From a phage, in sequence record PZ179880.1: 64,000 bases of DNA, one strand, 5' to 3'. The translations under genes and the position numbers were made by a program. The notes under the pieces were generated by a model, which searched no databases, was not told the DNA's origin, and was given only the letters and a program-made list of their open reading frames with translations. This document shows positions 3,797 through 33,325 of the stretch, piece by piece. Numbering within the stretch: position 1 is the stretch's first letter; each line of letters opens with the position of its first letter.

Positions 3797-4812
3797 TGTG
3801 TTGCCTCTACATATAACTGATTTGCATATTGAATAAGTGCTTCACGGTCAGAATCAGTGATGTCTGGAATTGCATTAATGTATTCTTCCATCAACGTCTG
3901 AAGAGATTGAACTTCAACTTCTTCACTGTCATCTGACTCGACAGAGTTATCAATCTTTGACACAACTCGTAATGAATGCACAACTTTTTCTAGTTCAGAT
4001 TCGAACTTCGTTAGATTTTTGTCTACTTCAGTTACTATAACACGTACTGATAGATTTGTAAAATCTTTATAGTCAATTTTTCCTTTAAATGGATAATGAA
4101 TTCTACGATGCCAGGTAGTGTTGTTTGGAATAAATTCCATTCGTTCTGTTTCTGTATCAAACATCCAGAACCCACGAGGGTCATTCTCGTCACCTGCAGT
4201 TAGTGTCCATGGTGTCCCAATATATCTGACGTTAGCAGCCTCAGAGATAGTATGGAAGTGACCAGACCACACCTCTTTATAAGTCTTAAGGAAATCAGGT
4301 TCAAGACCGTGAGATTTCATTCCTTTATAAAAATAAAATCCATTCAGTTCCCAGTGACCGACGCAAAAAGAAGCAGATGAAGTTTTGATGTGCTCAAGAA
4401 TTTCACCAGTATTTTCTTCACACATCCAAGGAATTAAATCAATTAAACATCCGTCAAAATCTACTGTAGTAGGCTTATCATATACTTTAACATTAGGATA
4501 TTTAGCCAAAAGCTCAGTAGAGGCATTTGGAGTTAAAGTATTTTTAAAGTGCATATCATGGTTTCCTACAACAGTATGTAGGGTAATACCAGCATCATCA
4601 AGCATTTGAACTATTTCACGAGCGAACTCCATAGTTTTATGCGTGATTGCTTTTCGCACATCAAAAATATCGCCGTATTGAATCCATGTAGTAATTCCAT
4701 TTTTCTTAGAATATTCTATTGCTTGTTTAATTCCATCCAACTGAATGGATTGAACCCACTCATCATCGGCTTTAACGCCTAAATGCCAATCACCTAAATT
4801 TAAAATTTTCAT
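3793..4812 (-). CDS. 47: Recombination endonuclease subunit gp47 (Mre11/SbcD-like phosphoesterase, 339 aa)
   Basis: Calcineurin-like phosphoesterase motifs (LGDWHLG, GDIFD, GNHD, GHWE) and T4 gp47 length. Confidence 0.95.
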   Translation of the reverse strand: MKILNLGDWHLGVKADDEWVQSIQLDGIKQAIEYSKKNGITTWIQYGDIFDVRKAITHKTMEFAREIVQMLDDAGITLHTVVGNHDMHFKNTLTPNASTELLAKYPNVKVYDKPTTVDFDGCLIDLIPWMCEENTGEILEHIKTSSASFCVGHWELNGFYFYKGMKSHGLEPDFLKTYKEVWSGHFHTISEAANVRYIGTPWTLTAGDENDPRGFWMFDTETERMEFIPNNTTWHRRIHYPFKGKIDYKDFTNLSVRVIVTEVDKNLTKFESELEKVVHSLRVVSKIDNSVESDDSEEVEVQSLQTLMEEYINAIPDITDSDREALIQYANQLYVEATQ

Positions 4813-4974
4813 ATATCAAGAACCGTCATTGAAATGCAAAATAAAATTATTGAAATAAACCCATCTGGCGTGCTAAAGAAACCAATCCAGCATGCTCTAG
4901 TGAATAGATAAAATGCAAGAAAAAGTATCACATATCCAAGAAATATCATTATATCAAACTCCGTATAAAGCTAA

Positions 4975-4988
4975 AGGGCCGAAGCCCT
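4975..4988 (-). terminator. UUCG-tetraloop hairpin at the 3' end of a-gt
   Basis: agggccgaagccct perfect stem-loop at the a-gt stop codon. Confidence 0.45.
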
Positions 4989-6191
4989 TTATTTTGTAAT
5001 AATGTCAAACTGTTCTTTAAAGCAGAAGCTTGAATCTTGATGCTGATACAAAAATTCATATGCTTTTTCTCGCTCACGGTCATAAAGAGCTCGGTCAGAT
5101 GACAGTTCTTTAATACGTTCAAACGTTGATTCCATATCATTTTCATCAAACCAAATGATACCGCTATCATGCGAGGTCAAAGGAGTATTATCAACACGGA
5201 ATTTTAAATTTTCGCCAGTAGATTTCCAAAATACCGGAATTGTTCCACATGCACCAAGCTCGAGATGAGTATATTCTAAAGAACGTTGTAGATATTTTTT
5301 GTCCAACTTACTCAGCTGATAACCAAATCCGGATTTACTCATGCGTTCAAGCATTTCGCTATTTACATAACGGTCAAGAATTTGCGTTGGCAAATTAGGA
5401 GCAATTTTAATTTGGTCTACTTGATGAAGACGATAATACTCGTATGGAATTCCTTTTTCTTTAATAGGAATGAACGCTGGAGAACGTTCCAGACCTTCCA
5501 TAATAGTACTTAGTCCTGCAGGTTTAAGATGTTTTTCATGAAAATCAAACATCTGATAAAAACCTTTCCATGTAGTCGTACGACCAATCCAACGGTTGAT
5601 ATTCATGTTAATTTCAGAAACATCTTTCCAGTAGGTTGATCTAACCTTCGCAATATCCATAGGAGGCTGAAAGTTATATACTGTCGGCGCTTCTTCAATA
5701 TCATCAAACAAAGAAACTGTTTCAGGATACCATTCTTTCATCAGAACTTTATTAAAATCGCCATTATCAGAATGACTAAAAATAACATCAGCTCGACGAA
5801 CAGTTTCTTCTAATCCCAAATTTCGGCGCAAAGAAAGAGAAGAATGGTCATGTTGATAAACTACAACACGAACCGAAGGTTTAATGTTATCAATAATTTT
5901 TTTATAGTTATTAATAGTGTCTTCTTCAACTGAAGTAGCAGGAACTGAATTGATAATTAGAATATCACAATCATTTACCAGCTTAAGTGTTTTATCGTAT
6001 TCTTTTGCCAATAAAACCGGAATTGAAAATGATTTATAATCATGCGCACAATTACGAGTAAATGATTTATCTTTAGCATAAACCAAAGTTACTTCATGAC
6101 CATTTTTAATAAACCAATCACGCTGCTCAAGAGAAAATTTAGTTACACCGCAACCTTCAAGACCTCGAGCCATAAAAATACATACTTTCAT
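4989..6191 (-). CDS. agt: DNA alpha-glucosyltransferase (400 aa)
   Basis: 400-aa ORF, N-terminus MKVCIFMARGLEGCGVTKF, position after gene 47 as in T4. Confidence 0.85.
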   Translation of the reverse strand: MKVCIFMARGLEGCGVTKFSLEQRDWFIKNGHEVTLVYAKDKSFTRNCAHDYKSFSIPVLLAKEYDKTLKLVNDCDILIINSVPATSVEEDTINNYKKIIDNIKPSVRVVVYQHDHSSLSLRRNLGLEETVRRADVIFSHSDNGDFNKVLMKEWYPETVSLFDDIEEAPTVYNFQPPMDIAKVRSTYWKDVSEINMNINRWIGRTTTWKGFYQMFDFHEKHLKPAGLSTIMEGLERSPAFIPIKEKGIPYEYYRLHQVDQIKIAPNLPTQILDRYVNSEMLERMSKSGFGYQLSKLDKKYLQRSLEYTHLELGACGTIPVFWKSTGENLKFRVDNTPLTSHDSGIIWFDENDMESTFERIKELSSDRALYDREREKAYEFLYQHQDSSFCFKEQFDIITK

Positions 6192-6241
6192 TTAATATCC
6201 TCTTTGTTTTGGTTTATTTTACCAAAAATTTATAAAGCAAT

Positions 6242-6261
6242 ATAGGAGCCGAAGCTCCTAT
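6242..6261 (-). other. Stem-loop (GAAG/UUCG loop) upstream of a-gt
   Basis: ataggagccgaagctcctat inverted repeat. Confidence 0.4.
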
Positions 6262-6434
6262 CCACATAATACGCCATACAGAGGCTCGTTAGAACTTTTA
6301 AATTTTATGCGCTTATATTTTATAGTTCCTTCTGCTTTAGCTTTATCATGAGACTCTTTAAAGCGTCTCATCATTTCCTCTTTAGAGGAACGAATTTTAT
6401 TATAATCTATTTCAGAAGTCTGGGTGTTCATCTT

Positions 6435-6641
6435 TCATAGTTTCCACCATTTTTTGACTTGATAGGAATCAACCCACACTTTCATATTAGGGTCTGCTCT
6501 TACAATAGGAGGATTAACTTCTTTAATTGAACTATCATGGTATTCTTTTTCAGAAATTTTCACACAAAGATGACCATTTAAAGATTCAGTAAATCCTGCA
6601 TTAATTTTAAGACGCTTGAATTTTACGTGTGTAAGCATCAA
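6435..6641 (-). CDS. Hypothetical protein (68 aa)
   Basis: ORF in the 55/a-gt interval. Confidence 0.4.
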   Translation of the reverse strand: MMLTHVKFKRLKINAGFTESLNGHLCVKISEKEYHDSSIKEVNPPIVRADPNMKVWVDSYQVKKWWKL

Positions 6642-6924
6642 TCATATCCTCAATCTGCGATCTAGTAGTCTTCCAAAGAATACTGATGAGTTCATCGTTA
6701 TATGGCTGTTTCAGAATATCCCGACTTTTCTTGATAGCATATTCGTATTGAGCAAAATTATTGTTTTCAGCTGCGATCTGAGCGTGCTTATAAAGACGAT
6801 TCAGTTCGCGTTTGTTTTTAGACAATAACTTATTTGCTTTTCTTTCTGCTTCAAGACGGTTCTTTTCTTCAATAGAAGAAATAAGCTTTTCCACTTCATC
6901 ATTAATTTCGGGTTTATCAGTCAT
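6607..6924 (-). CDS. Hypothetical protein (105 aa), predicted helical
   Basis: ORF in the 55/a-gt interval. Confidence 0.5.
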   Translation of the reverse strand: MTDKPEINDEVEKLISSIEEKNRLEAERKANKLLSKNKRELNRLYKHAQIAAENNNFAQYEYAIKKSRDILKQPYNDELISILWKTTRSQIEDMIDAYTRKIQAS

Positions 6925-6925
6925 A

Positions 6926-7144
6926 TTATTTCTCTAATATAAAATAAAAATCATCATCTGTTAAATGATACCGATAGTTTAATTCTACACCATTAGATTT
7001 AAAAGCGGTATCATACGGATTTTCTGGATCAATATCAATGTCAAGAGCTAAAACTTCCCTGAGATACATTTTAAGTAAATAGGGAATAGCTTCAACTTCA
7101 GGTATTTCTTCTAAGAATCCGGAGAGGTTAATCGTTAGCCTCAT
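6926..7144 (-). CDS. Hypothetical acidic protein (72 aa)
   Basis: ORF immediately downstream of gene 55. Confidence 0.5.
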
Positions 7145-7685
7145 ATAAAAAATCCAAACTAGGAGAATCGTCTACAACACTTTTCTTTTCAGCCCCCGGT
7201 GTTCTATAGGTTGATTCTTCGTAATGCGTCATTTTATCGTAGATGTCTTGAATAAAAGTTTCATCTACTAACGCAACCATATCGTCGTCACGACTGTCAT
7301 AGACATTGTGAACGAAGTAACTGTATTTCTTTGCAACTTCCTTACGTTCTTTTTTAATACGTTGGACGAATGCATTAAAACAAGCTTGAGTTATATATGC
7401 ATGTGGGTTTTTATATTTCGTTTCATCAAAATTATGAAGCCCCTTAATAGAAGCTTCTATACCATCTGCAATCATTTCTTGTTTCCAGGATTGGGTGTAT
7501 CCTGAAAAGTTGAAACGTTTAGATAAGCCTTCTGCAATAAGCATAATGGCTAATCCGATGGTATCATTCTGACGAACTACTTTATTTGGGTCTTTATTAT
7601 TTGCTAATTCTGTTTTCCAATCAATAATAGCTTGTAAAAGCTCTTTATTGTTTACGTAATTATATTTAGGCTTAGTTTCTGACAT
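7128..7685 (-). CDS. 55: Late-transcription sigma factor gp55 (185 aa from [10 protein letters not shown])
   Basis: Sequence [32 protein letters not shown] matches T4 gp55; start set at the third codon of the track ORF. Confidence 0.9.
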
Positions 7686-10233: not shown

Positions 10234-10704
10234 TTAATCATGTTTCCACACCCCATCGGTATTTGACCAAAGTCGCTGATTATCTGAACCTCGCCACAGC
10301 TTTTTGGTCGGAAGATTTTTCTCATACTTCCCATCAATAATAACATCAACATATTTAAGCATTTCTAGTTGTTTAATATCTTCAAACTTGTACCCTGTCC
10401 ACAACCAAATGCTTTTATTTGGATAAAGATTTTTTACTGTTTGAACAATGCAATGAACAACATCTCGGTTATCAGGATAAAGAGGGTCTCCTCCAGTTAT
10501 AGTTAATCCTTCTATATAATCATTATTCAAACATTCAATTAATTGTTCTAGTGTTTCACCAGTGAATGGAACGCCATTTCTAGCATTCCATGTTGATTTA
10601 TTATAACACCCTTCACATTTATGCAAACACCCCGTAACGAAAAGAACGACCCTGCATCCAGGGCCATTCACAAAATCACAGGGATAAAATCTATCGTAAT
10701 TCAT
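10234..10704 (-). CDS. nrdG: Anaerobic ribonucleotide reductase activating protein NrdG (radical SAM, 156 aa)
   Basis: Cys cluster GCLHKCEGCYN; stop overlaps the nrdD start. Confidence 0.9.
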   Translation of the reverse strand: MNYDRFYPCDFVNGPGCRVVLFVTGCLHKCEGCYNKSTWNARNGVPFTGETLEQLIECLNNDYIEGLTITGGDPLYPDNRDVVHCIVQTVKNLYPNKSIWLWTGYKFEDIKQLEMLKYVDVIIDGKYEKNLPTKKLWRGSDNQRLWSNTDGVWKHD

Positions 10705-12518
10705 TGGTGTTTAACCCTATGCATGATTTCTTTATTTTTGCCAAGATTAAATCCGCGCTCGTTCGGATTTCCCAAATAACCGCAAGTTCTTCTTATTGTG
10801 TTCATCTTTTTAGGATCAGTTTCTCCACAAATAGAACAAACAAACCCGTTTTCAGTAGGAGTCATTTCATGGGTACTTCCACACGTAAAACATTTATCTA
10901 CTGGCATGTTAACACCAAAATAATCTAAATGTTGTGCAGCATAATCCCAGACAGCCTCAAGACCTTTTAGGTTATTTTTCATATCAGGAAGTTCAACATA
11001 AGAAATGTGACCACCTGTCGCAATGAAATGATATGGGGCTTCGCGAGAAATCTTTTCAAACGGAGTAATATTTTCTTCTACTGAAACATGGAAACTGTTA
11101 GTGTACCATCCTTTATCGGTAACATCTTTTACACTTCCATATTTTTTTGTATCAAGTTTACAGAAGCGATAACAAAGGTTTTCAGCAGGAGTCGAATACA
11201 AACTAAAAGCAAACCCAGTTCTTTCAGCCCACTGTTTAAGACGAGCATTCATTTTAGTTAAAATTTCTTGTCCAATATCACGACCGACAAGAATATTCAA
11301 TTCATGAATACCAATGTATCCTAAAGACACTGAACTTCTACCGTTTTTAAATAACTCAATTATGTCGTCATCAGGTTTAAGACGAACCCCGAATGCACCT
11401 TCTTGGTAAAGAATAGGAGCAACAGTCGCTTTAACTCCTTTTAAGGAACTAATTCTACACATCAAAGCTTCAAAACATAAATCCATTCGCTCATTGAACA
11501 ATTCAGTAAATTTCTGTTCATTGAACTGTGTTCCAATATAAGAATCCAACGCAATACGAGGAAGATTCAGTGTTACAACACCAAGATTATTACGTCCATC
11601 AAGAATTTCATTACCGGTTGAATCTTTCCACGCGCTCAAGAAACTGCGGCAACCCATTGGAGAAACAGGAATAGATGAGCCGGTGATAGCTTTATTGTTC
11701 TTAGCTGAAATAATATCAGGATACATCCTTTTGCTTGCACACTCTAGAGCAAGCTGCTTAATATCATAGTTCGGATCGTCTTTATAAAGATTAACACCTT
11801 CTTCAACGAACATAACAAGCTTAGGGAAAATAGGAGTTATCCCATCACGACCGAGACCTTTAATACGATTTTTCAGAATTGCTTTCTGAATCATTCGTTC
11901 AGTCCAGTCAGTTCCCGTACCAAATGTAATTGTTACAAAAGGAGTCTGTCCGTTTGAACTAAAGAGAGTATTTACTTCATATTCATAAGCTTGGAATGCA
12001 TCGTATACATCTTTTTCTGTTTTAGATTGAGCATAATTTAACGCATCAGCGATTTGCCATTTTTCTGCATCCTCAATATGTTTTGCATAGGTGCGTTTAA
12101 CATAAGGAGAAAGTACTTTATCTACATTAGCAAAAGTCGTTCCGCCATATTGATGGGAAGCAACTTGCGCAGTAATTTGTGCCATAATTGCAGTAGCAAC
12201 GCCAATTGATTTAGGAGTTTCAATCTGCGCATTACCAAGCTTAAATCCGTTCTCAAGCATTCCTTTTAAATCTACTAAACAGCAATTAGTAAATGGAAGA
12301 GCAGGGGAATAATCAATATCATGAAAATGAATAATTCCGCTTTCATGCGCTTTCATAATAAAAGACGGGACCATATTTTTGGCAATGTGTTTAGACACAA
12401 TACCAGCCATAAGGTCCCGTTGAGTTGGAAAAACACGAGAATCTTTATTAGCATTCTCGTTCAAAAGGTCTTTATTAGTTTTATGAATCAATCCTTCAAT
12501 TTCTTTTTCAATTGTCAT
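10701..12518 (-). CDS. nrdD: Anaerobic ribonucleoside-triphosphate reductase NrdD (605 aa, uninterrupted)
   Basis: C-terminal glycyl-radical motif RRTCGYLG, Zn-ribbon CFTCGSTHEM...CSICG; single continuous ORF. Confidence 0.95.
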   Translation of the reverse strand: MTIEKEIEGLIHKTNKDLLNENANKDSRVFPTQRDLMAGIVSKHIAKNMVPSFIMKAHESGIIHFHDIDYSPALPFTNCCLVDLKGMLENGFKLGNAQIETPKSIGVATAIMAQITAQVASHQYGGTTFANVDKVLSPYVKRTYAKHIEDAEKWQIADALNYAQSKTEKDVYDAFQAYEYEVNTLFSSNGQTPFVTITFGTGTDWTERMIQKAILKNRIKGLGRDGITPIFPKLVMFVEEGVNLYKDDPNYDIKQLALECASKRMYPDIISAKNNKAITGSSIPVSPMGCRSFLSAWKDSTGNEILDGRNNLGVVTLNLPRIALDSYIGTQFNEQKFTELFNERMDLCFEALMCRISSLKGVKATVAPILYQEGAFGVRLKPDDDIIELFKNGRSSVSLGYIGIHELNILVGRDIGQEILTKMNARLKQWAERTGFAFSLYSTPAENLCYRFCKLDTKKYGSVKDVTDKGWYTNSFHVSVEENITPFEKISREAPYHFIATGGHISYVELPDMKNNLKGLEAVWDYAAQHLDYFGVNMPVDKCFTCGSTHEMTPTENGFVCSICGETDPKKMNTIRRTCGYLGNPNERGFNLGKNKEIMHRVKHQ

Positions 12519-30279: not shown

Positions 30280-30600
30280 TTATTCTTTAAATCTAATCAA
30301 TTTATTCATAGACTTTGAAACTTCTGCACGAACCTCATGTAGATTTTTGAGCTGTTCAAGACGCTGTTCATAGTAAGCAATTTCATCTTCTTCGAGACAG
30401 TCCTGTGAATCTTCTTTAAGATAACGTGCATAGTCCTGGAAAGCGTTACGAACTACTTCCTGGAAGTCATCAAGACTTTGAATTTTCTTAGGAGCAACAG
30501 ATACACGACGAGGGGCAGTATAATACTCATAACCAAACCCTGCGCTTAATTGAGCCATTAGTATTTTTCCTCTGGCTGGAACACAGCACGACAAGCCCAC
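30280..30600 (-). CDS. Hypothetical protein (start probably internal Met MAQLSAGF)
   Basis: ORF. Confidence 0.45.
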
Positions 30601-30824
30601 ATACTGGCTTCTTTGAGTTTCGTTTTAGCAATAGTTAACTGATCGAGGCTTTCAGCATAATTCTTCGCGAATTCACAGTCTTCACAATTATCTAGTGCTT
30701 CCCAAAATTCATCGTATAAAGCGTCAAAGATAAGTCCTAATCGAACTTCAGCGTCTTTGATAGCATTCACTTTACCGATTTTCTTTTCAGTATGCGGTTT
30801 ATAACCTTTAATATCTTCAATCAT
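30558..30824 (-). CDS. Hypothetical protein (88 aa)
   Basis: ORF. Confidence 0.45.
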
Positions 30825-31038
30825 ATTCTACTTCCTCACCCGTTCCCAAATCATATTCAACTAAACGAATAGGTTCATGAATGCTATATCCTTGAACAGA
30901 AATTTCTGTCGTAGGATAAATTCCATTAATATCACCCATATTCCAAGCTTCATTAAATTGTTGTTCGCCTGAATTACTAAACCACTCTGCGAAAGCATTT
31001 AGTACATCTTCAGAACCTTCAATAATTATCTTTGCCAT
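30817..31038 (-). CDS. Hypothetical acidic protein (73 aa)
   Basis: ORF. Confidence 0.45.
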   Translation of the reverse strand: MAKIIIEGSEDVLNAFAEWFSNSGEQQFNEAWNMGDINGIYPTTEISVQGYSIHEPIRLVEYDLGTGEEVEYD

Positions 31039-31400
31039 TACAGACTCTCAGTAAAGGTACGAGCAATAACGTCGCGCTGCTGTTCCGGAGTCAGAGAGTT
31101 AAAGCGAACTGCATAACCGGATACACGGATGGTCAGCTGCGGATATTTTTCCGGATGCTTAACTGCATCTTCCAGAGTTTCACGACGCAGAACGTTTACG
31201 TTCAGGTGTTGACCACCTTCAATTTTAACTGTAGGCTGTGGTTCAATTTCAATTTCACGTGCATGCAAACCGCAGAAAATTTCTGGGTCTACAAAAGAGT
31301 CCTCTTTAAAGGTTTTAGAGACAATAATTCGCGCTTGAATACCATCTTCAAAATAAATAGTACCTTTATGTGTGCCTTCAAGAATTTGATATGCTTTCAT
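31038..31400 (-). CDS. Autonomous glycyl-radical cofactor (GrcA/YfiD-like, 120 aa)
   Basis: C-terminal [25 protein letters not shown] is the glycyl-radical fingerprint of pyruvate formate-lyase C-terminus/GrcA. Confidence 0.7.
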
Positions 31401-31406
31401 ATAACC

Positions 31407-31736
31407 TCAATTAGAAAATAAATTTATCCAAGATTGTTCTTTAATTAAAAATGGCTCAGAATCATATGCTATTAAACTTTGGGTGATTAGTCCTTTAAAA
31501 GGTCCATCAATAAATTCCATGGTAAAATATGGAATTTTATTCATTAATCTTGCATTAGGAGCCGTGCACAAAACTCTGCATCCTTTGAATACGCCTTTTT
31601 GTAATTTGTATTGCTTGGGATAAAATTCGCTCAAAATGTTATTTTTTGCCAAAATTTCAAAATGATTCACCAATTTATTTTTAATAGTTTTTGGCGAAAA
31701 ATAAAGATATTCGAAAAGCTGAGTGTCTGTCATCAT
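31407..31736 (-). CDS. Hypothetical protein (start uncertain)
   Basis: ORF; start set near the stop of the upstream ORF. Confidence 0.4.
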   Translation of the reverse strand: MMTDTQLFEYLYFSPKTIKNKLVNHFEILAKNNILSEFYPKQYKLQKGVFKGCRVLCTAPNARLMNKIPYFTMEFIDGPFKGLITQSLIAYDSEPFLIKEQSWINLFSN

Positions 31737-32320
31737 TGCATTCCGATTACGAAAAACTGTGGACGAGTAATACCACCAATGCAGCATTTACTATTGCAAC
31801 AGTGATGCACAGTTTCAATATGAATATCGTAAATTTTATCCATATCAGGAGATTTAACAGGCTCATCGATTATATACAAAATCCGCGAAAGCGATAAACC
31901 TCTGAACTTGCTTCCTTTATTACCGATAAAACTACGGACAGAATCGGTAAATAAGCGGAATCGAATATCATCGCTAGAATAACGAGAAAATTCTTTTTTA
32001 ATGTGGCCCGCAGAAATTTTAGCATAAGCTGAAGTATTAGAAAGAACAATAACTGTTCCGCCATCATACAGCCAATTAGCAGCGAAGTTAGTCACAGCAG
32101 TTGATTTACCGGATTGACGTCCACCATCTAGTCGAAGTGTGCAATACTGTTTGAGTAAGTCTTCAAATGGTGGGATATAATCGTTTTTACAAATTTCTTC
32201 TACTCTAGCATCAGAATGGTGTGTAAAAGCATTCATCAGGGATAGATAAGGACCAGTTAAAAATGTTCTCATTTTGTTATCTCTAAATTTGGGCCATTCC
32301 ATGGCGCATGAATTTTCCAT
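31733..32320 (-). CDS. P-loop NTPase-like hypothetical protein (195 aa)
   Basis: Walker A-like GGRQSGKST and Walker B-like ILYIIDE. Confidence 0.5.
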   Translation of the reverse strand: MENSCAMEWPKFRDNKMRTFLTGPYLSLMNAFTHHSDARVEEICKNDYIPPFEDLLKQYCTLRLDGGRQSGKSTAVTNFAANWLYDGGTVIVLSNTSAYAKISAGHIKKEFSRYSSDDIRFRLFTDSVRSFIGNKGSKFRGLSLSRILYIIDEPVKSPDMDKIYDIHIETVHHCCNSKCCIGGITRPQFFVIGMQ

Positions 32321-32425: not shown

Positions 32426-32899
32426 TTATTTGAATGATTTGACATACTGAACAGAACCTTTGCTATTCACAAAGGCGATTTTACCATTTTTGTTATACAT
32501 GGTGGCAGTACGCTGATAGCCATAAGTTTGCTTACCAGATTGATAACCAACTAATGCAAAATTATCTTCGCCCATTTTATTCTGCTTAGCGCGGATGCGT
32601 TCATGGCCGTGTGCCATAAGAACCTTAGCATCACCAGTTGCAATGGATCTACGAGTTTTTTCATCTTCAACTGTATTAACAAAATCGTCAAATGAATCAA
32701 ATTTAGCATGGGATTTATTATACAGTTTTCCATCTACTGCATAATTATATCCCTGTACATCCATCTCAACTTCTGTACCATCATCCAATACAGCAGTGAT
32801 TTTTTGACCTTTTTTAAATTTCAAAAGATCAGTAAAAGATTCAGCAATAATTTGAGAATTAATAGCTGCTTCAGTGATAAATTCTTGATATGTTTTCAT
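32426..32899 (-). CDS. Internal-protein-like capsid-targeted protein (157 aa)
   Basis: N-terminal MKTYQEFITEAA is the T4 capsid-targeting sequence shared by IPI/IPII/IPIII. Confidence 0.6.
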   Translation of the reverse strand: MKTYQEFITEAAINSQIIAESFTDLLKFKKGQKITAVLDDGTEVEMDVQGYNYAVDGKLYNKSHAKFDSFDDFVNTVEDEKTRRSIATGDAKVLMAHGHERIRAKQNKMGEDNFALVGYQSGKQTYGYQRTATMYNKNGKIAFVNSKGSVQYVKSFK

Positions 32900-32908
32900 A
32901 TGTTTCCT

Positions 32909-33325
32909 TTAAATGTAAATATTTTTGCCGTAATACTTGTACCAGTGTGGCTTCATTAAAATTTTTTCATCGAGTCGTTGTTGACTCAATTTAATAGCTG
33001 ATTTGCATGGATTATAATCATTTTTCCATTCTGCTGGAATATCGCTGATGTCAGGAACTTCAGTATCTTTTATACTAAACCCACGTTTTAAGCATTCCGT
33101 TATAATGTCTGATTGACGCTTTCGCAAAAATTCTAACTTATCGTAAAAGAACGTAACATGACCAGAACCTAAAATAAACTCGGAAGATATTTTAAAATCT
33201 TTAACCCGCTTACCATTTGCCACGTGTTTACGAACTATACCAAAAACACGTGGCAATTCACGATACTCAGCCATAAGATGTTGGTCGGTCAGTTCAGAAA
33301 CAAGTGTTAAATTGATACGAGTCAT
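32909..33325 (-). CDS. denV: Endonuclease V (pyrimidine-dimer DNA glycosylase DenV, 138 aa)
   Basis: [29 protein letters not shown]... matches T4 endo V closely but not identically; RBS GGAGG before MTRIN. Confidence 0.95.

Follow-up and report, generated by a model that had tools for sequence, protein, structure and literature searches.

Why would a lytic phage carry a short gene whose product bears a glycyl-radical fingerprint, and which enzyme, of the host or of the phage itself, would that product serve? The question is raised by positions 31038-31400 of a 64,000-nucleotide stretch of phage DNA (PZ179880.1; hereafter the window), for which a preliminary description, made from the letters and their open reading frames, had proposed a GrcA/YfiD-like spare part for oxygen-cleaved pyruvate formate-lyase (PFL) of the host or, conceivably, for the anaerobic ribonucleotide reductase NrdD of the phage. 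The reading preferred here, to which we assign a probability of about 0.85, is that of a phage GrcA-type spare part that is radicalized by the host enzyme PflA and rescues oxygen-cleaved host PFL; its docking half also appears to have been overwritten by host grcA, a point to which a lower likelihood is given below. Within the window, this reading is based on orthology, intact motifs, synteny and a docking module that is fully identical to that of host GrcA; activation by the PFL-activating enzyme (PFL-AE) and rescue of cleaved PFL are taken from the literature on the T4 protein, a 98%-identical allele other than the window's, as reported in PMC8683613.

A stand-alone glycyl-radical domain in a T4-like genome

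The gene and the elements that define it are the following.

31038..31400, minus strand: ortholog of T4 vs.6/Y06I, a 120-aa phage autonomous glycyl-radical cofactor (GrcA homologue), identified by ORF and homology
31116..31118, minus strand: GGT codon of the predicted radical-bearing Gly95 (plus-strand bases acc), placed by alignment to GrcA and PFL
31405..31408, minus strand: Shine-Dalgarno sequence GAGG, 4 nt 5' of the vs.6 ATG and overlapping the TGA stop of vs.7, by sequence reading
31036-31040, minus strand: TAATG, shared by the stop codon of vs.6 and the start codon of the following gene, by sequence reading

Read from the window sequence, the ORF extends from an ATG start to a TAA stop and encodes 120 aa, with Pfam Gly_radical (E=3e-18; 66.8 bits against a cutoff of 22.2) as the sole significant Pfam domain; this match to the glycyl-radical family is far beyond chance. 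The glycyl-radical loop, RVSGYAV, is part of the C-terminal end of the protein, which was read over its last 31 residues, and the 25-residue string singled out in the preliminary description corresponds to residues 92-116 and is followed by TESL. Gly95, which is set within an 11-residue segment, lies opposite GrcA Gly102 (6owr) and PFL Gly734 (1h16) and is invariant across 54 distinct viral homologues; in the same set, the module delimited by segments of 10 and 14 residues is essentially invariant. The ORF, the Pfam match and the matches to GrcA and PFL thus bear out the initial claim of a 120-aa protein with a glycyl-radical fingerprint, and the alignment to E. coli GrcA and the PFL C-terminus that had been suggested as a check shows both the radical Gly and its flanking consensus to be retained.

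Among solved structures, the best match is E. coli GrcA (6owr; E=7.5e-42, residues 22-120 aligned to 28-127), followed by E. coli PFL (1h16; E=4.3e-26, residues 58-120 aligned to 697-759). The 13-residue loop around Gly734 of PflB is identical in the phage protein; the latter, however, consists of 120 aa with neither the catalytic barrel nor the Cys418/Cys419 site of PflB, is matched by models of the PFL family over its final 60-65 residues only, and therefore does not have the make-up of a full-length glycyl radical enzyme (a ten-stranded barrel of ~750-850 aa with a catalytic Cys). Its features are those of the GrcA/YfiD family (TIGR04365, IPR011140), namely a small stand-alone glycyl-radical domain of ~120-130 aa and an RVSGYAV fingerprint with the aligned Gly. 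TIGR04365, 'autonomous glycyl radical cofactor GrcA', is also the best NCBIfam match; divergence of the N-terminal half keeps its score, 154.3 bits, under the curated equivalog cutoff of 170, yet RefSeq names the T4 ortholog GrcA. When searched alone against NCBIfam, the N-terminal 59 residues matched no model, and the similarity of the N-terminal region to that of E. coli GrcA is weak but significant by pairwise BLASTP (36% identity over 39 aa, E=2e-5).

Like E. coli GrcA (YfiD; 6owr; TIGR04365), the phage product is a stand-alone glycyl-radical domain of ~14 kDa, and its last 61 residues (60-120), including the radical Gly, are 100% identical to the E. coli protein, compared to 49/61 for the C-terminus of E. 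coli PflB. The two GrcA proteins differ in their N-terminal halves, that of the phage being ~30% identical and 7 residues shorter, as well as in genomic setting: the phage gene belongs to the early-gene block of a lytic phage, whereas the E. coli gene adjoins ung.

By sequence, the window is assigned to a Tequatrovirus (T4-like) genome. The 2.5 kb around the gene are 96-98% identical to several hundred Tequatrovirus genomes, with 98.4% identity to phage ECO07P4, and the gene order vs.8-vs.7-vs.6-vs.5-vs.4-regB agrees with those of T4 and phage NR1. The full-length match to phrog_1209 (residues 1-120, 3.2e-62), together with the position between vs.7 and vs.5/vs.4/regB, places the protein in the T4 Vs.6/Y06I group. 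T4 vs.6 (NP_049730, named 'autonomous glycyl radical cofactor GrcA' in RefSeq) is the protein called Y06I; it shares with the window protein 98% amino-acid identity, the length of 120 aa, the location between vs.7 and vs.5 and a mosaic DNA with an E. coli-like 3' half, and differs from it by two substitutions (C43 in the window versus Y in T4, and R73 in the window versus H in T4) and a few synonymous changes. R73 is also the state found in E. coli GrcA. The feature has been known since its characterisation in T4 in 2001 and is annotated as a matter of routine; the preliminary description failed to identify the gene as a T4 gene that is both well known and commonly annotated.

Homologues were detected by tblastn in 1589 phage records, which include T4-like, T5-like and jumbo phages of Escherichia, Salmonella, Klebsiella, Yersinia, Aeromonas and other hosts, and many of them are annotated as GrcA or, loosely, as 'pyruvate formate-lyase'. 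The homologues from T5-like (Tequintavirus) and jumbo phages resemble the window protein in architecture, in the invariant radical module and in the MKAYQ start, but are ~52-65% identical to it overall.

Within the genome, vs.6 is packed in a tight, operon-like block of co-directional genes that is typical of the T4 vs region. A scan for sigma-70 promoters and terminators near the gene gave results no better than shuffled sequence, and the nearest MotA-box-like site upstream (33072-33094) is ~1.7 kb away. Over the whole window, shuffled sequence leads to an expectation of 7.9 MotA-box-like patterns (TGCTTNA, a 10-14 nt spacer and TANNNT) and 24 are observed, mostly on the minus strand, consistent with T4 middle promoters. 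As for the neighbouring genes, the second one downstream of vs.6, the vs.4 ortholog (30558-30824, minus strand), matches the Pfam Acb2/Tad1 hairpin domain (E=3.3e-19), which marks it as the T4-type anti-CBASS cyclic-nucleotide sponge. The vs.7 ORF (31407-31787, minus strand), counted from its first ATG, has 126 aa and runs into vs.8; since the annotated T4 vs.7 has 109 aa, translation probably begins at the internal methionine of MMTDTQ.... Finally, a 157-aa ORF between vs.8 and denV (32426-32899, minus strand) has no counterpart at that place in the T4 reference and appears only as hypothetical in the annotation of relatives (phage ime09 type).

Host PFL or phage NrdD as the partner enzyme

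E. coli YfiD and T4 Y06I are described as the two validated spare-part proteins (PMC8683613, on Wagner et al. 2001, BBRC 285:456). According to that source, both receive a glycyl radical from the PFL-activating enzyme, and both form in vitro a complex with oxygen-cleaved PFL in which activity is restored. The original suggestion of a GrcA/YfiD-like spare part for host PFL agrees with this published biochemistry of the 98%-identical T4 protein. The gene is among the T4 ORFs not identified as essential (PMC1524935), and no in vivo phenotype of a vs.6 deletion was found in the searchable literature.

Identity of the docking half to host GrcA would suit a competitor as well as a spare part. A decoy or regulator that competes with PFL or GrcA for PflA, or that caps PFL, could redirect pyruvate flux, and the phage-specific N-terminal half, strongly unlike that of host GrcA, might be expected of such a molecule. 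We regard this role as quite improbable, considering that the T4 ortholog is reported to restore cleaved PFL (PMC8683613) and that the radical Gly and its loop are strictly conserved in the viral homologues, whereas a pure decoy would need neither.

Two further genes enter the discussion at this point.

10234-10704, minus strand: nrdG (Pfam Fer4_12/Radical_SAM)
10701-12518, minus strand: nrdD (Pfam NRDD/Gly_radical)

The preliminary description had the spare part encoded 'alongside' this pair (10234-12518). Both genes are indeed present in the same genome; they are not adjacent to vs.6, however, but ~18.5 kb from it, with many genes between. Their presence raises the alternative that the protein is a spare part for phage NrdD, or that it is radicalized by phage NrdG instead of host PflA, and gene order in other phages lends itself to the same idea: in Aeromonas phage AsFcp_4 the order is nrdD-nrdG-vs.6-nrdC-nrdH, with the vs.6 homologue overlapping the end of nrdG by 4 nt, and in four IMG/VR contigs, jumbo phages included, the homologue lies beside or between nrdD and nrdG. 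A role in nucleotide metabolism was also speculated on by Nolan et al. 2006 from the Pfam match alone (PMC1524935). Direct comparison of the proteins nevertheless argues against this alternative. When the vs.6 product is compared by BLASTP with the NrdD of the window itself, E is 8.3 and the aligned stretch is outside the radical loop; on these grounds, an NrdD spare part was rejected for this phage. Moreover, the loop of NrdD reads RRTCGYLG and is preceded by a CxxC...CxxC (Cys4) site, whereas the vs.6 product has neither this loop nor the Zn Cys4 site expected of an NrdD spare part, and its C-terminal module instead equals that of host GrcA at every position and that of host PFL at 49 of 61. 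Considering also the ~18.5 kb between the genes in the window, the published in vitro activation by PFL-AE (PMC8683613) and a T5-like phage, DT571/2, that has grcA and nrdD with no nrdG in the 72 kb examined, which cover early and replication genes, a link to NrdD or NrdG is highly unlikely, and the earlier suggestion of NrdD repair or NrdG activation did not find support.

DT571/2 (an Escherichia phage; positions 14-86 kb) encodes two glycyl-radical proteins, namely a GrcA homologue and a NrdD with 50% identity to that of the window, both of which presumably rely on host activases. With no nrdG in those 72 kb, its GrcA would be independent of a phage activase, and a general need of phage GrcA for such an activase was rejected on this case. 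Where a grcA-like gene is found within an nrdD-nrdG(-nrdC-nrdH) cluster, as in some T4-like phages of Aeromonas (4056-7644 of the AsFcp_4 stretch examined) and in a like placing in jumbo phages, the arrangement may reflect a shared 'anaerobic infection' module. For these lineages there is a small probability of a link to the RNR system or of cross-activation, in which phage NrdG would also radicalize the GrcA homologue encoded inside nrdD-nrdG.

A host-identical tract in the 3' half of the gene

At the DNA level, the gene is divided into two parts.

31038..31222, minus strand: host-identical 3' tract (gene nt 179-363, codons 60-120 plus stop), encoding the module EGGQHLNV...RVSGYAV...TESL that corresponds to PFL 699-759, delimited by DNA identity to E. 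coli grcA
31223..31400, minus strand: phage-type 5' half (codons 1-59), a diverged GrcA N-terminal region recognized by weak protein similarity

In 5426/5426 complete E. coli genomes searched, grcA matches the tract at 98.4% identity (3 differences in 185 nt), and the 5' 178 nt have no DNA match. The alignment junction is abrupt, at about codon 60/Glu61 (EGGQHLNV), and the GC content is 0.48 in the tract versus 0.35 in the 5' half. Of the last 186 nt, 182 are identical to grcA and 146 to pflB, and a pflB origin of the tract was accordingly rejected. The MKAYQ(I/N)L start of the 5' half is common to T5-like and other phage homologues; because this half is GrcA-like in protein and shared with distant phages, the phage would already have possessed a grcA homologue, the 3' half of which was replaced later.

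Comparison of the two phage genera Tequatrovirus (window, T4) and Mosigvirus (MM02, RPN187, JS09, ST0) gives identities of 95-98% for the tract, 88-90% for the vs.6 5' half, 76-78% for the end of vs.7 and 69-70% for vs.5. Being far less diverged than its flanks, the tract would be much younger than the split between these genera, and its variable sites 204, 354 and 357 show homoplasy with the E. coli state. The corresponding tract of Klebsiella phage KP179 (Jiaodavirus) is closest to K. pneumoniae grcA, with 20 nt differences versus 28-31 to other genera (91.3% identity to K. pneumoniae grcA versus 85.7% to that of E. coli), and carries two Klebsiella-type residues, L76 and E81. T5-like, Krischvirus, Aeromonas and jumbo phage homologues, on the other hand, have 71-81% DNA identity to any grcA of the sampled set, which is without Cronobacter, Enterobacter and Aeromonas, and contain no host-like DNA; in particular, the 3' halves of the T5-like and jumbo-phage genes are 71-79% identical to any enterobacterial grcA sampled and, judged by sequence, carry no recent host tract.

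The Klebsiella grcA used here was taken from mislabelled chromosomes in the plasmid collection, which includes megabase chromosomes labelled as plasmids, such as the 5.37-Mb K. pneumoniae 'plasmid unnamed2'; CP125156.1 is among these records. Some 'viral' contigs of IMG/VR similarly contain bacterial-type genes: a 19-kb contig has a full-length grcA that is 88.8% identical to Yersinia grcA, and PFL C-termini are found on two further contigs. Rather than phage grcA, such genes are probably host DNA in or beside prophage contigs.

Taken together, a tract of ~185 nt and a handful of genomes tentatively suggest, as the simplest reading and with a likelihood that comes close to an even chance at best, that the PFL-docking half has been repeatedly overwritten by the grcA of the current host through short-patch gene conversion. 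With these data, independent conversions cannot be told apart from the passing of a converted tract from one phage to another in co-infection. Conversion breakpoints that vary among phages, which the greater length of the BLAST match to E. coli grcA in certain Mosigviruses might imply, were rejected upon alignment, which places all of them at the same junction and attributes the longer matches to extension through weak similarity.

Identity to the host could also date from an old acquisition and have been kept by purifying selection on amino acids and codon usage, rather than by recent conversion. The module is under extreme amino-acid constraint, host grcA is a highly expressed gene with biased codons, and the 5' junction is identical in all Tequatrovirus and Mosigvirus alleles inspected, all of which would be in keeping with such a history. 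Bacterial grcA genes, however, are subject to the same constraints and differ from each other at 14-25/61 synonymous codons of the C-terminal module (for E. coli, 15 relative to Citrobacter and 23 relative to Salmonella), compared to 3 between the window and E. coli. Furthermore, divergence between the two phage genera amounts to 22-31% in the flanking genes and to 2-5% in the tract, the difference in GC between the tract and the 5' half persists, and the tract of the Klebsiella phage follows Klebsiella, not E. coli. An old acquisition is hence unlikely. No earlier description of the DNA mosaic was found in the searchable literature, which leaves key subscription papers outside it and whose silence is not proof of absence.

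Proposed function and significance

In the preferred reading, that of a GrcA-type spare part for host PFL, PflA (the radical-SAM PFL-activating enzyme of the host) would radicalize the phage protein at Gly95 when the host is limited for oxygen. Upon cleavage of host PFL at Gly734 by oxygen, the activated phage protein would dock on the truncated enzyme and replace its lost C-terminal glycyl-radical domain, so that conversion of pyruvate to acetyl-CoA and formate would be restored. As T4 shuts off host gene expression, neither new host GrcA nor new PFL would be expected during infection; in vivo, we infer, the phage would benefit from a copy of its own by sustaining the fermentative energy supply through microaerobic shifts, and the spare part would complement the anaerobic ribonucleotide reductase that the phage also encodes. 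Overwriting of the docking half by host grcA DNA through gene conversion would, in turn, allow it to stay matched to the enzyme of the host.

In summary, the gene is of modest weight in itself, as a textbook example of a phage repair part for a metabolic enzyme of the host, by which fermentation may be kept going where oxygen is scarce, as in the gut, once the host has been shut off. If the conversion reading is true, a phage metabolic gene would be kept matched to its host by copying host DNA, not by point mutation. If full population data bear it out, the mosaic would show cleanly and on a small scale how an auxiliary gene of a phage is updated from a host template, and it would also offer a natural marker of the hosts that T4-like phages have recently had.
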